A stretch of 64,000 nucleotides of DNA from Terriglobia bacterium. GTDB taxonomy: Bacteria > Acidobacteriota > Terriglobia > JAJPHL01 > JAPKYU01. The stretch lies in contig CBDCKA010000001.1 in assembly GCA_965218055.1 (NCBI GenBank), positions 840,953 through 904,952 on the forward strand, in the 5' to 3' direction. The notes below the pieces were generated by a model, which searched no databases, was not told where the DNA came from, and saw nothing but the letters and a program-made list of their open reading frames with translations. Of the stretch, positions 36,090-40,443 are shown piece after piece. Positions within the stretch are counted from its first letter, which is position 1. Each line of letters opens with the position of its first letter. Position numbers and translations under genes: made by a program.

Positions 36090-36178
36090 TTACGAATAAA
36101 AATTTTCGATGGGGGTCATCGGAACGTTCGATTGGCCAGGACACCCCGCCTGTGGTCAACTGTGTAGCCTGAGCGCGA
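36090..36178 (+). promoter_or_regulatory. conserved ~85-nt cis element upstream of PII gene (copy 1)
   Basis: ttacgaataaaaattttcgatgggggtcatcGGAACGTTCgattggccaggacaccccgcctgtggtcaactgtgtagcct. About 85% identical to 37585..37662 upstream of amtB. Contains the palindrome GAACGTTC. Confidence 0.4.
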
Positions 36179-36215
36179 GCGCGTTTGCGGCGCTGGATCA
36201 TAGCTGGGGGAGCGA

Positions 36216-36554
36216 ATGAAGAAACTTGAGGCCATTATCCAGCCCTTCCGGCTGGAGGAAGTGAAAGAGGCGCTGAGGGCCGTCGGAATTAGCGGGATGA
36301 CCGTCAGCGAGGTGCGCGGGCACGGCCGCCAGAAAGGCCACACGGAGGTGTACCGCGGCCACGAGTACACCGTGGATCTGCTACCCAAGGTGAAGATCGA
36401 GATGGTGCTCGCCGACGCGATGGTGGAAGCAGCCGTCCAGGCCCTGCTCGGTTCGGCTCGCACCGGGAAGATCGGCGACGGGAAAATCTTCCTGTACTCG
36501 GTGGAGGAAGCCATCCGCATCCGCAACGAAGACCGCGGCGACCAGGCAGTGTAG
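36216..36554 (+). CDS. glnB: nitrogen regulatory protein P-II
   Basis: 112 aa. [51 protein letters not shown] is the canonical PII with T-loop Tyr51. Confidence 0.95.
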
Positions 36555-36815
36555 CGCTTTTTAACTGTTCTGCGGACAGCCTCAAATCGGCAGCGCTGCT
36601 TTTTGACCGCTGCGCTGGGGCGGCCCTGTGCCCGATGCCCGTGTTTTGTTTCTAGCTCTACTTTCCACACTGGCATAATTGCATAATTATTCCTCATAAT
36701 AGGAAAACCTAATCACGCCGATTCAAAAAACCGTCTTGCTTCGCGCTCCAATTATTCCGTAACGTTAGAGATGACAAACACAAGAGTCGTCACATGAACA
36801 TTAAGGAGACTGACA

Positions 36816-37580
36816 ATGGCAAAACTTTTGGTCCTGGTTTTGGTGGTGCTGGGGACGGTCCCCGCTGCCTGGGCTGGCGAACCAGCTGAGGCTGTGAGCG
36901 AAGCGCCAGCAGAGGACGAAAAGCCTTGGAGTCTGTCTTTCGACAGCACGTTCGTAAACAAGTATATCTGGCGCGGCCAAAACCTGAACAACAACGCGTC
37001 GTTCCAACCCGGAATGTCGTTCAGTTACAAGAACCTCACGATATCTTCGTGGAGTCAATTCTCGCACACGAGCTTTGGCGATAGCGGTGTGGCCGGTAAC
37101 CACTGGACCGAGCATGACCTCACTGTTGACTACGGCTTTGCGCTCAGCGAAAAGTTGTCTTTGAACGTGGGCTGGATTAATTATGCGTTTCCGAACCTGG
37201 GAGAGGACCGCTACACGAACGAGTTCTACGCCGGCATCAGCGCCGACACGATTCTCCAGCCGAGCTTCAGCATCTACGGTGACCCGCATCAGGGCGAAGG
37301 CCTCTACTACAACCTCGGCATCGGTCATGGCCTGGACCTGGGCAACGGCTTCGGTCTCAGCTTGTCAGCTGCGGCCGGTCTGAACCAGGGCCAGTGGATC
37401 GACATCACGACGGTTTCCGATGTTGTGCTCGGGGTCGGCCTAGACATTCCGGTCAGCGATAACGTCACATTGTCCCCGTTCTGGAACTACATCACGGGCA
37501 ATGACAGCCTGAGAAGGGGGCCGGACGGGTTCTTCTTCAGCGGTCACCTTGCAGGGGCGAATCTGAACATCAGTTACTAA
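36816..37580 (+). CDS. predicted outer-membrane beta-barrel protein (copy 1), genetically linked to PII/AmtB
   Basis: 254 aa. Signal peptide MAKLLVLVLVVLGTVPAAWA. Alternating amphipathic beta-strands ending in an aromatic residue (..ANLNISY). 80-90% identical to 39685..40443. Confidence 0.7.
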   Translation: MAKLLVLVLVVLGTVPAAWAGEPAEAVSEAPAEDEKPWSLSFDSTFVNKYIWRGQNLNNNASFQPGMSFSYKNLTISSWSQFSHTSFGDSGVAGNHWTEHDLTVDYGFALSEKLSLNVGWINYAFPNLGEDRYTNEFYAGISADTILQPSFSIYGDPHQGEGLYYNLGIGHGLDLGNGFGLSLSAAAGLNQGQWIDITTVSDVVLGVGLDIPVSDNVTLSPFWNYITGNDSLRRGPDGFFFSGHLAGANLNISY

Positions 37581-37584
37581 TCCC

Positions 37585-37662: not shown

Positions 37663-37691
37663 TTGCCTAACAATTTGCAGGGGGGAGAACG

Positions 37692-39038
37692 ATGAAGAAA
37701 CGAATTGCAACTCTTCCGCTTTGGGTGGCCGTCGCTGCTCCGGCGCTGCTGGGACAGGAGGCGCCCGATATGGCCCAGCTCCAGGCAGAGATAGCCGCTG
37801 CTCAGTCGGCCGGCGACAACGCCTGGATGTTGGTGTGTTGCGCCCTGGTGCTGATGATGACCGGGCCTGGCCTGCTGTTGTTCTACGGCGGCCTAGTGCG
37901 CAGGAAGAACGTGCTGGGCACCATGATGCAGTGCTTCATTCTCATGGCGGTGATCAGCGTGCTCTGGGCCGTGGTCGGCTACAGTCTTGCCTTCGCGGAA
38001 GGAAACGTGTTTGTGGGCGGCTTGGATCATGTGTTTCTCCGTGGCGTGGGCATGGAACCCAGCGGCTACGCCGGCACCATTCCTCATTACACCTTCATGT
38101 TGTTTCAGCTCATGTTTGCGATCATCACTCCGGCGCTGATCACCGGGGCCTTCGCCGAGCGCATGAAGTTCAGCGCCATGCTGCTGTTCATGGTGCTCTG
38201 GTCGCTGGTTGTCTACGCCCCGCTGGCTCACATGGTGTGGGGCAGTGGCGGGCTGCTGGGCTGGGGAGGGACGATCCCGGCGTTCGACTTTGCCGGCGGG
38301 ACGGTGGTCCACATCTCTTCCGGCGTTTCGGCGCTGGTCTGCGCGCTGTACCTGAAGGGCCGGCTGGGCTACGGGAAGGTGCCGATGCCGCCGCACAGCG
38401 TGGTGTTGAGTATCATCGGCGCTTGCCTGCTGTGGGTGGGCTGGTTCGGATTCAACGCGGGCAGCGCGCTGAACGCCGGAGGCTTGAGTGCGAGCGCCTT
38501 TGCCGCAACGCACTTCGCCACCGCCGCCGCCGTCCTGGGCTGGGTGCTTGCCGAATGGTTGCGCAACGGCAAGCCCGGCGTGTTGGGCGCCATTACCGGG
38601 GCCGTAGCCGGCCTGGTGGCGATCACCCCGGCCGCCGGCTTCGTGACCCCCATGGCAGCCATCTTTATTGGCTTCAGCGCCGGGGTGATCTGCTACCTGT
38701 TTGTCGGAATTCTCAAGCACCGCCTGGGCTACGATGACTCGCTGGACGCCTTCGGCGTGCACGGCGTTGGCGGCACGCTCGGCGCCCTGCTCACCGGGGT
38801 GTTCGCCACCACGGCTGTCAATGCCGACCTGCCACATGGCGGCCTGGTGGACGGCAACCCCGCCCAGATTCTCAACCAGGCCGGCGCCGTGCTGATCACC
38901 TGGGCGTTGGCAGCCGTCGGAACCTTGATTCTGCTCAAGGTGGTGGACCTGCTGATAGGAGTCCGTGTCTCGGAAGCGGATGAAGTGCAGGGTTTGGATA
39001 TTACCCAGCACGGCGAGCAGGGCTACGTCATGGAATAA
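37692..39038 (+). CDS. amtB: ammonium transporter
   Basis: 448 aa. Signal peptide plus 11 TM helices. Amt/MEP motifs (DFAGGTVVH, FGFNAGSAL). Confidence 0.95.
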   Translation: MKKRIATLPLWVAVAAPALLGQEAPDMAQLQAEIAAAQSAGDNAWMLVCCALVLMMTGPGLLLFYGGLVRRKNVLGTMMQCFILMAVISVLWAVVGYSLAFAEGNVFVGGLDHVFLRGVGMEPSGYAGTIPHYTFMLFQLMFAIITPALITGAFAERMKFSAMLLFMVLWSLVVYAPLAHMVWGSGGLLGWGGTIPAFDFAGGTVVHISSGVSALVCALYLKGRLGYGKVPMPPHSVVLSIIGACLLWVGWFGFNAGSALNAGGLSASAFAATHFATAAAVLGWVLAEWLRNGKPGVLGAITGAVAGLVAITPAAGFVTPMAAIFIGFSAGVICYLFVGILKHRLGYDDSLDAFGVHGVGGTLGALLTGVFATTAVNADLPHGGLVDGNPAQILNQAGAVLITWALAAVGTLILLKVVDLLIGVRVSEADEVQGLDITQHGEQGYVME

Positions 39039-39101
39039 ACCTATGCGCCGGCCGGCACTCAAGGGGGCTAAGCCGGCGCTGCATCGTAGTTGGGGGAGCG
39101 A

Positions 39102-39440
39102 ATGAAGAAACTTGAGGCCATTATCCAGCCCTTCCGGCTGGAGGAAGTGAAAGAGGCGCTGAGGGCCGTCGGAATTAGCGGGATGACCGTCAGCGAGGTG
39201 CGCGGGCATGGCCGCCAGAAAGGCCACACGGAGGTGTACCGCGGCCACGAGTACACCGTGGATCTGCTACCCAAGGTGAAGCTCGAAATGGTGCTCGCCG
39301 ACTCGATGGTGGAAGCAGCCGTCCAGGCTCTGCTGAGTTCGGCTCGCACCGGAAAGATCGGCGATGGGAAAATCTTCCTGTACCCGGTGGAAGAAGCCAT
39401 CCGCATCCGCAATGAAGACCGCGGCGACCAGGCAGTCTAG
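39102..39440 (+). CDS. glnK: nitrogen regulatory protein P-II (GlnK-type, downstream of amtB)
   Basis: Within ORF 39090..39440. Start MKKLEAI. About 95% identical to the PII at 36216. Confidence 0.95.
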
Positions 39441-39684
39441 CGCTTTTTAACTGTCCTGCCGCCAAACGTTAGGGTAACGCTCTGAATAGACTTCGTTCCG
39501 CGCCCGAAGCCCGTGTTTTCTATTTAGCTACCTCCAAAAACGCAGGTAATATGGTATTTTCTGGTCATAATAGCAACGCCTGGTCCCATAATTAACAGGA
39601 CACTATTACTTTTACACCACTTTTTACTTAATATTGGAGATTTCGCACAAAGGCTCTATCTAATGAGGTTGGAGGAGAAGAGTT

Positions 39685-40443
39685 ATGAAGCTGATCCCTT
39701 GGGTCATGGCATTGGTGGCCATTACAGTCACTGTGAGCGCCGCAGATTTGCTGGGGCAAGACGCCACACCGGCGCAGGCCGACAAACCCTGGAGCCTGTC
39801 CTTCGACGCCACGTTCGTAAATAAGTATATCTGGCGCGGCCAAAACCTGAACAACAACGCATCCCTCCAGCCCGGACTGGCTTTCACTTACAAGAACCTC
39901 ACGGTTTCTTCGTGGAGTCAATTCTCGCATACAGGCTTCGGCGATAGCGGCGTGGCCGGCAACCACTGGACCGAGCATGACTTCACTGTTGACTACGGCT
40001 TTGCGCTCAGCGAGAAGATCTCTGTGAACGTAGGCTGGATTAATTACGCGTTTCCGAATTTGCAGGATGGCCGCTACACCAACGAGTTCTACGGGGGCAT
40101 CAGCGCCGACACGATTCTCCAGCCGAGCTTCAGCATCTACGTTGACCCGCATCAGGGAGACGGCGTCTACTACAACCTCGGCATCGGTCATGGTCTGGAC
40201 CTGGGCAAAGGCTTTGGTCTCGGTTTGTCAGCTTCGGCTGGCCTGAACCAGGGCCAGTGGATCGACATCACGACGGTTTCCGATGTGGTGCTCGGGGTCA
40301 GCCTAGACGTTCCGGTCAGCGACAACGTCACGTTGTCCCCGTTCTGGAACTACATTACGGGCAATGATAGCCTGAGGACGGGACCGGACGCGTTCTACTT
40401 CAGCGGCCACATCGCGGGGGTGAATCTGAACATCAGCCACTAA
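39685..40443 (+). CDS. predicted outer-membrane beta-barrel protein (copy 2)
   Basis: 252 aa. Signal peptide MKLIPWVMALVAITVTVSA. Paralogue of 36816..37580. Preceded by an AT-rich 245-bp spacer. Confidence 0.7.
   Translation: MKLIPWVMALVAITVTVSAADLLGQDATPAQADKPWSLSFDATFVNKYIWRGQNLNNNASLQPGLAFTYKNLTVSSWSQFSHTGFGDSGVAGNHWTEHDFTVDYGFALSEKISVNVGWINYAFPNLQDGRYTNEFYGGISADTILQPSFSIYVDPHQGDGVYYNLGIGHGLDLGKGFGLGLSASAGLNQGQWIDITTVSDVVLGVSLDVPVSDNVTLSPFWNYITGNDSLRTGPDAFYFSGHIAGVNLNISH

Follow-up and report, generated by a model that had tools for sequence, protein, structure and literature searches.

The DNA analysed here, called the window throughout, is a 64-kb stretch (64,000 nt) of contig CBDCKA010000001.1 from a soil bacterium of the Terriglobia (Acidobacteriota), and the locus under study lies at positions 36,090 to 40,443. 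Five open reading frames, all on the + strand, follow one another in the order PII, barrel, amtB, PII, barrel, each at the place given in an earlier note on this DNA. PII-1 (36216-36554) codes for a nitrogen signal protein of the GlnK/GlnB type (112 aa; recognised also by the NCBIfam P-II models), and PII-2 (39102-39440; 112 aa) follows amtB after 63 nt in the classical amtB-glnK pairing. Both copies match PF00543 of Pfam (E 1e-30 and 2e-31, respectively), both have an intact T-loop including Tyr51, and they are identical at 108 of 112 positions (96%; E 2e-80), close to the 95% estimated before. The amtB gene (37692-39038) codes for an ammonium transporter of 448 aa with a signal-like N-terminal segment, which lies above the cut-offs of both PF00909 (E 1e-118; 397 bits, cut-off 23.2) and TIGR00836 (433.7 bits, cut-off 343.3).

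The remaining two genes, barrel-1 (36816-37580; 254 aa) and barrel-2 (39685-40443; 252 aa), are paralogues. Barrel-1 has a signal-peptide-like start and is predicted to form a 12-stranded outer-membrane beta-barrel. The two proteins are identical at 198 of 251 positions (79%; E 1e-150), and at 86% of the 224 residues of the mature part. Their N-termini, MAKLLVLVLVVLGTVPAAWA/GE and MKLIPWVMALVAITVTVSA/AD, are leaders of the signal peptidase I type with no Cys and no lipobox. Barrel-1 ends in NLNISY and barrel-2 in NLNISH, so that the terminal aromatic residue ascribed to both is found in barrel-1 (Tyr) but not in barrel-2 (His, in the 40438-40443 region); the His is kept in the orthologues from two related metagenome contigs (L045 and L047), and the near-identical protein P0008 ends in Tyr. 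Amt followed after 63 nt by a GlnK-type PII with Tyr51 is what the canonical amtB-glnK operon shows; the window differs from it in that this unit is extended by a barrel gene and in that a second PII-barrel unit is present without an amt of its own. No additional copies were found within the window beyond these two units.

Family membership of the barrels was assessed with sequence profiles. Against PF09694 (Gcw_chp), barrel-1 scored 18.3 bits and barrel-2 20.9 bits, both under the cut-off of 24; against TIGR02001, barrel-1 scored 24.5 bits, under the cut-off of 47.15, and barrel-2 gave no match. The initial homology search returned 62 relatives, mostly without annotation and a few tagged 'TIGR02001 family'. 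PF09694 was matched by 10 of the 29 aligned close homologues (best E 1.7e-10), and a profile search started from the window family reached proteins named 'TorF family putative porin' by NCBI. When the alignment of the window family (A1) was compared with that of canonical PF09694 members (A6) using hhalign, a full-length match was obtained (99.9%, E 6.3e-34, 227 columns). The motifs common to the window family and canonical TorF/Gcw_chp proteins are Y-x-[WF]-R-G (N-terminal), E-x-D, E-x-Y and Y-x-D, together with Q-P, W, G-x-x-x-Y and P-S. Y50, W52 (F in A6), R53, E99, G119, E136, Y154 and D156 are among the residues that do not vary in A1 and have a counterpart in A6; R53, E99 and G119 are invariant in the broader alignment A2 as well.

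Since the barrels are sub-threshold in Pfam and NCBIfam yet match over their full length in profile comparison, they are, as judged from sequence, divergent members of the known, catalogued and uncharacterised TorF/Gcw_chp family (PF09694, TIGR02001). The family is thus not a new one, and it already has its names, NCBI's 'putative porin' among them, although no function has been established for it. It is large, since 5804 clusters (50% identity) are matched with E values up to 1e-3 and 510 with values up to 1e-30, and no structure has been solved for any TorF/Gcw_chp member. The window proteins share with curated members the length class of 230-260 aa, the signal peptide and the predicted 12-stranded barrel; they differ in forming part of an acidobacterial branch for which public sources mostly give no annotation.

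The AlphaFold2 model of barrel-1, built from the family alignment, was all-beta, with a predicted local distance difference test score (pLDDT) of 84.8 and a predicted template modelling score (pTM) of 0.77, giving the confident membrane beta-barrel that had been supposed. All leading Foldseek matches of this model in the PDB were outer-membrane barrels, the best template modelling scores (TM-scores) being 0.65 for the 12-stranded PcoB and 0.62 for the KdgM-type GalP. A separate model of the canonical member P0213 (Aquisalinus flavus; TorF family putative porin according to NCBI) had a pLDDT of 87.1 and 12 main strands, and its nearest structures were KdgM (TM-score 0.74-0.75), PcoB (0.69) and NanC (0.62). 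Root-mean-square deviations for the matches of the KdgM, NanC and PcoB type were 3.6-5 Å. These small monomeric 12-stranded barrels are the best structural matches, and their genes sit with matching inner-membrane uptake or catabolic genes; the likeness is one of fold only, with 10-14% identity in structural alignments and no detectable sequence relationship, and the window barrels gave no Pfam match to the KdgM family at E up to 1.

The polar face of barrel-1 was assigned from the alternation of hydrophobicity along the strands. It would carry nine acidic residues (D43, E99, D101, D105, E136, D156, D174, D202 and D210) and eight aromatic ones (Y50, W52, W79, W97, Y123, Y138, Y154 and Y164), with no Lys or Arg among the predicted lumen-facing positions. 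The family alignment shows no variation at E99, D105, E136, Y50, W52, W79, Y123, Y154 and Y164, and almost none at D101, D156 and Y138. KdgM and NanC have a basic lining and take acidic sugars, in contrast to the acidic and aromatic lumen predicted here. A lumen of this kind, free of Lys and Arg and with several of its residues invariant in the family, suggests that the channel may be selective for cations or ammonium.

The same structural matches bear on the idea that the barrel is not a solute channel but a structural, anchoring or signalling outer-membrane protein, such as a closed barrel whose loops are the functional part, that happens to be co-regulated with nitrogen genes. Foldseek also returned the non-channel barrels LpxR, OpcA, Pla and an intimin domain, all at lower TM-scores than the best matches, which are channels (KdgM, NanC, PcoB, GalP, Tsx and OmpG). 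The conserved residues cluster on the polar face of the strands, which presumably looks into the lumen, and not in the loops, and the barrels have no extra domains. We therefore regard a non-channel role as improbable.

The genes around family members were surveyed by a pattern scan in which each GTDB species was represented by one genome; this gave 41 loci, and neighbours were detected by tblastn with the window AmtB and PII within 6 kb. Amt and/or PII lay near the family gene in 13 of the 41 loci, with a probable fourteenth (L038), and the linked loci span Acidobacteriota, Nitrospirota, Aquificota, Planctomycetota, Armatimonadota and Verrucomicrobiota; grouping at 70% identity left 20 clusters, of which 8 were linked. 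The order is Amt-PII-barrel in Terriglobia (L001-L003), Amt-barrel in Planctomycetota (L039), barrel-PII in Armatimonadota (L040) and barrel-Amt-PII-Amt-PII-Amt in Nitrospiraceae (L028). The barrel is divergent from AmtB(-PII) in Bryobacterales/Solibacteraceae (L019, L021), and the arrangement is divergent also in Verrucomicrobiota (L041). Aquificota and relatives (L031, L033, L035, L036) have Amt-PII-barrel-GATase-PII, in which a class I glutamine amidotransferase (GATase) sits between the barrel and the second PII.

Look-ups of more distant family members found 6 of 8 linked. P0065 adjoins Amt-PII-GlnD, P0079 (a Haloferula TorF family protein) two Amt genes, and P0088 and the alphaproteobacterial P0213 an Amt gene each; P0136 and P0147 adjoin PII and an NtrC-like activator, the former also GltB, in both cases without amt. 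P0069 and P0200 showed no linkage. In metagenomes, a query from the canonical subfamily gave 80 loci and 36 evaluable clusters, 8 of which were linked, with Amt/PII directly upstream of the barrel, co-directional and separated from it by spacers of 42-730 nt. Binomial tails for these linkage counts were 3e-4 to 1e-11 at an assumed background of 1-5%, and the counts are far beyond chance at any plausible background in that range.

In all, linkage recurs in at least seven phyla with several gene orders (Amt-PII-barrel, PII-Amt-barrel, barrel-Amt-PII and divergent). The variation in gene order among lineages implies that the pairing of barrel and Amt/PII has repeatedly been retained or established anew. 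The partner seen most often is Amt, in many cases where no PII was found (L019, L039, L041, L049, L050, L057), which points to the transporter and not the regulator as the functional partner. The linkage to amt/glnK that had been anticipated is thus present across phyla, but as a property of subfamilies, the closest paralogues being unlinked. Single genomes can hold linked and unlinked paralogues, as do L007 and L019, which come from one metagenome-assembled genome. The plasmid and chromid AmtB regions that were inspected (H17, H11, H3, H5, H1) contained no TorF/Gcw_chp member, and tblastn of barrel-1, P0079 and P0213 against the plasmid collection gave no match. Nineteen near-identical family members (L105-L124, L132), on contigs mostly labelled as human gut metagenome, had no Amt/PII nearby.

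The neighbourhoods also bear on a second explanation, according to which the barrels are small porins of nitrogen limitation that are not specific for ammonium: general diffusion pores produced under nutrient scarcity, or channels for methylamine, trimethylamine N-oxide (TMAO) or trimethylamine, urea or amino acids. The linkage to Amt would then reflect a common nitrogen regulon and not a common substrate. The namesake gene torF presumably encodes a TIGR02001 protein. In Shewanella, TorR mediates the response of its promoter to TMAO (PMC9948233), which makes other substrates of the amine type plausible. One linked member, P0088, has an NMT1-type ATP-binding cassette (ABC) transporter next in line, some members lie beside PII with an NtrC-like activator or GltB, without amt, and the unlinked subfamilies resemble housekeeping porins. 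Amt, however, is by far the commonest partner, often without PII or any other nitrogen gene, and the neighbourhoods show no recurrent transporter for urea, nitrate or amino acids. We regard porins of this less specific kind as the main rival explanation, possible but less likely than a channel for ammonium.

Two kinds of conserved non-coding sequence accompany the genes. The first is a 78-nt element present in two copies on the + strand that are 82% identical: copy A (36093-36170; direct repeat D3) lies about 45 nt 5' of PII-1 and copy B (37591-37668) lies 23 nt 5' of the amtB start codon. Two occurrences of its 36-nt core were counted in the window, where 0 are expected. Copy A holds the near-palindrome ATCGGAACGTTCGAT (also given as ATCGgAAgGTTCGAT) and a weak promoter-like pair, TTGNCN-17-TYAACT. 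The element is kept at both places in L045 and L047 (near 6295-6357 and 7776-7853 in L045/L046), and it precedes amt in L001-L003 (near 3684-3760). On this sequence evidence, it is a candidate shared operator or promoter for an acidobacterial nitrogen regulator.

The second kind lies in the AT-rich spacers between PII and barrel, whose low GC content had been pointed out before and is evident: minima of 41-46% against about 60% in the surroundings. Spacer 1 (36555-36815, + strand, 261 nt; GC minimum 46%) contains the conserved block GGCATAATTGCATAATTATTCCTCATAATAGGAAAAC at 36672-36708 as well as repeated CATAAT-like motifs, and spacer 2 (39441-39684, + strand, 244 nt; GC minimum 41%) contains a conserved block at 39544-39579 with TCATAATAG at 39565-39573. 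The block, GGCATAATTnnATAATTnnnnnTCATAATAGGAAAA, is common to both window spacers and to L045, L047, L001 and L003, and was not found upstream of paralogues without amt linkage. Its invariant part, TCATAATAG, occurs three times in the window against 0.09 expected; the third occurrence, at 16011, is inside a GC-rich coding region and was taken as a chance match. The block of spacer 1 may serve barrel-1 as a promoter or as a regulator site.

A role of these sequences as RNA was considered and rejected. Rfam (E up to 1) gave nothing relevant for the spacers or the 78-nt element, ViennaRNA z-scores ranged from -0.85 to +1.41, and the folds of the 78-nt element (z -0.85) and of the spacer block were no better than those of shuffled controls. 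No intrinsic terminator was detected 3' of PII or of barrel-1. A sigma-54 promoter in the 78-nt element was likewise rejected, the GG and GC being 13 nt apart instead of 12 or the GC at -12 missing, and the spacer block does not fit the sigma-54 spacing either. A scan for the sigma-70 consensus gave no site, and the TTGNCN-17-TYAACT reading is weak. The element and the spacer blocks are more likely control sites at the level of DNA, possibly activator-dependent promoters.

Three related metagenome contigs (L045-L047) have the five-gene layout too, which is therefore neither an assembly artefact nor a very recent event. In L001-L003 there is a single unit (element-amt-PII-barrel), and it adjoins the beta-propeller gene that also stands next to PII-1 in the window. 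The DNA homology shared by the two PII units starts 28 nt 5' of each PII start, which corresponds to the amt-PII intergenic region. For these two reasons the most fitting description of the locus is a tandem pair of units, each built as [78-nt element]-(amt)-PII-[AT-rich spacer]-barrel, with amt missing from the first; the module was said before to be duplicated, which it is, and to bracket amtB, which describes it less well. Alternatively, L001-L003 may have lost one unit through recombination between 78-nt elements. Synonymous divergence (dS) between mature barrel-1 and barrel-2 is 0.33, so the duplication is not recent, and both duplicate pairs are under purifying selection, the ratios of nonsynonymous to synonymous divergence (dN/dS) given for the two window copies being 0.13 and 0.19-0.26.

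Several further observations were made on the history of the locus. Between PII-1 and PII-2 (36216-36551 against 39102-39437) dS is 0.12, about one third of the value for the mature barrels, and the homologous block from about 20 nt 5' of the ATG shows only 3 differences in its first 180 nt; these values suggest gene conversion between the PII copies or strong constraint on codons. The window AmtB (body 37763-38984) is only 34% identical to the Amt found in the same slot of the closest relatives (L045 7950-9530, L047, L001, L003), and the flanks of that slot are 92-95% identical in DNA. The relatives keep remnants of a window-type amt at the 5' end (about 75 nt, with ATG changed to CTG in L045) and at the 3' end (about 54 nt), so that in those lineages the gene body has been exchanged in the manner of a cassette. 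PII-1 of L047 (6606-6740) was called as a 44-aa fragment, possibly a pseudogene or a frameshift error of long reads. The flanking gene (33883-35889, - strand) codes for a secreted beta-propeller-repeat protein of 668 aa, whose counterpart flanks L001-L003 and L045-L047; its C-terminal part presumably resembles a Solibacter-type C-terminal domain.

A locus so dynamic (it was duplicated in tandem, unit 1 lost its amt, relatives had their amt body replaced, and the PII copies may have undergone gene conversion) could be taken to mean that the linkage has no functional meaning in this genome, being the residue of tandem duplication and gene loss with the barrels as passengers. The pairing, however, recurs in distant phyla in different gene orders, both copies are under purifying selection, and conserved non-coding blocks precede both barrels. 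Passenger status was already disfavoured on these grounds and is considered very improbable.

In the textbook account of Gram-negative bacteria, AmtB is where ammonium assimilation begins, and passage of the outer membrane is attributed to general porins. A probable precedent for an association at the level of the operon is nlmA-glnK-amtB of Herbaspirillum seropedicae, which is NtrC-dependent and induced by nitrogen limitation; NlmA was detected in membrane fractions and was placed by its authors 'most probably in the periplasm' (PMC3023670). Hsero_0083 lies directly 5' of glnK-amtB in this organism (789 nt, 262 aa by coordinates), and its expression in planta rose about 15-fold along with that of glnK and amtB (PMC6646362). 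Hsero_0083 (formerly orf1) is evidently nlmA. NlmA may be a TIGR02001-type protein, which is a lead only; the literature searched gave no NlmA sequence or family statement. The gene nlmA is single-copy and first in its operon, and differs in this from the window barrels, which are two and each 3' of PII.

Outer-membrane porins have also been tied to faster ammonium entry, of help at low ammonium, in other families. PorA of Methylotuvimicrobium buryatense (402 aa, 16 strands) was genetically shown to speed ammonium entry, in a 2025 preprint whose authors also say that a porin specific for ammonium has yet to be characterised (bioRxiv 10.1101/2025.01.28.635327). In Kuenenia stuttgartiensis, the porin KSMBR1_3177 has a BBP2 domain, is induced by ammonium limitation and was proposed to speed ammonium entry (PMC7438415). 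Both proteins are larger than the window barrels, belong to families other than theirs and have not been reported as linked to amt/glnK.

The best-supported reading of the fold, the predicted lumen, the neighbourhoods and the nlmA operon is the proposal that each barrel acts as a small monomeric channel of the outer membrane, produced along with AmtB and GlnK, which passes ammonium to the periplasm. The outer-membrane ammonium channel suggested in the earlier note is in this sense partly supported. We put the chances of this proposal at about even. The barrel protein would be exported by Sec and would form a 12-stranded monomeric channel in the outer membrane. Barrels, AmtB and GlnK would be produced together when nitrogen is scarce. 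NH4+/NH3, and possibly small methylated amines, would cross the outer membrane through the barrel to the periplasm, where AmtB would capture the ammonium, itself gated by GlnK. The analysis shows the duplicated gene order, the family membership by profile, the predicted barrel fold, the recurrent linkage to amt/PII and the shared non-coding elements; outer-membrane location, nitrogen co-regulation, an open channel and selectivity for cations or ammonium are the parts of this scheme that we infer. The wider proposition, that the amt-linked TorF/Gcw_chp subfamilies are dedicated cation-selective outer-membrane ammonium channels that form a co-regulated two-membrane route with AmtB and GlnK, is put forward more tentatively, at somewhat less than an even chance. 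For the amt-linked members the ammonium-channel hypothesis is reasonable and testable, and unpublished as far as literature searches show.

A number of points weigh against the proposed function. NH3 and NH4+ are small enough for general porins, so that the need for a dedicated channel is not evident. Most TorF/Gcw_chp members are not linked to amt. The nearest paralogues (60-73% identical; Bryobacterales, L004-L018) have thiE-like, ABC-transporter, isocitrate-dehydrogenase-like and dnaK genes as neighbours and are oriented convergently. A verrucomicrobial subfamily occupies a conserved block of transaldolase, CCA-adding enzyme, DUF423, barrel, rplM, rpsI, argC and argJ, which suggests a constitutive porin role for this branch; the metagenome loci with a block of this type are L060-L062 and L067-L099. 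With such unlinked paralogues and subfamilies in existence, fold and family alone do not imply ammonium. Further, barrel-2 does not have the C-terminal aromatic residue usual in outer-membrane barrels, and the long spacers with their own conserved block mean that the barrels may be transcribed or regulated apart from PII and amt. The lumen-facing positions derive from residue alternation and not from coordinates, the possible link to NlmA is made by gene size and position and not by sequence comparison, and the proposed function as a whole derives from sequence, models and the gene neighbourhood of family members.

Even if the proposal is wrong, the Pfam and NCBIfam cut-offs have been shown to miss a sizeable acidobacterial branch of TorF/Gcw_chp. 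If it is true, the amt-linked members, which occur in at least seven bacterial phyla, would be the first outer-membrane porins with ammonium as their specific substrate, and a large family without assigned function would gain a role. This would explain the small barrel gene found beside amt in many oligotrophic bacteria of soil, hot springs and the sea. Genes like nlmA would then offer a genetic handle on whether the permeability of the outer membrane limits the scavenging of ammonium at nanomolar to micromolar levels.

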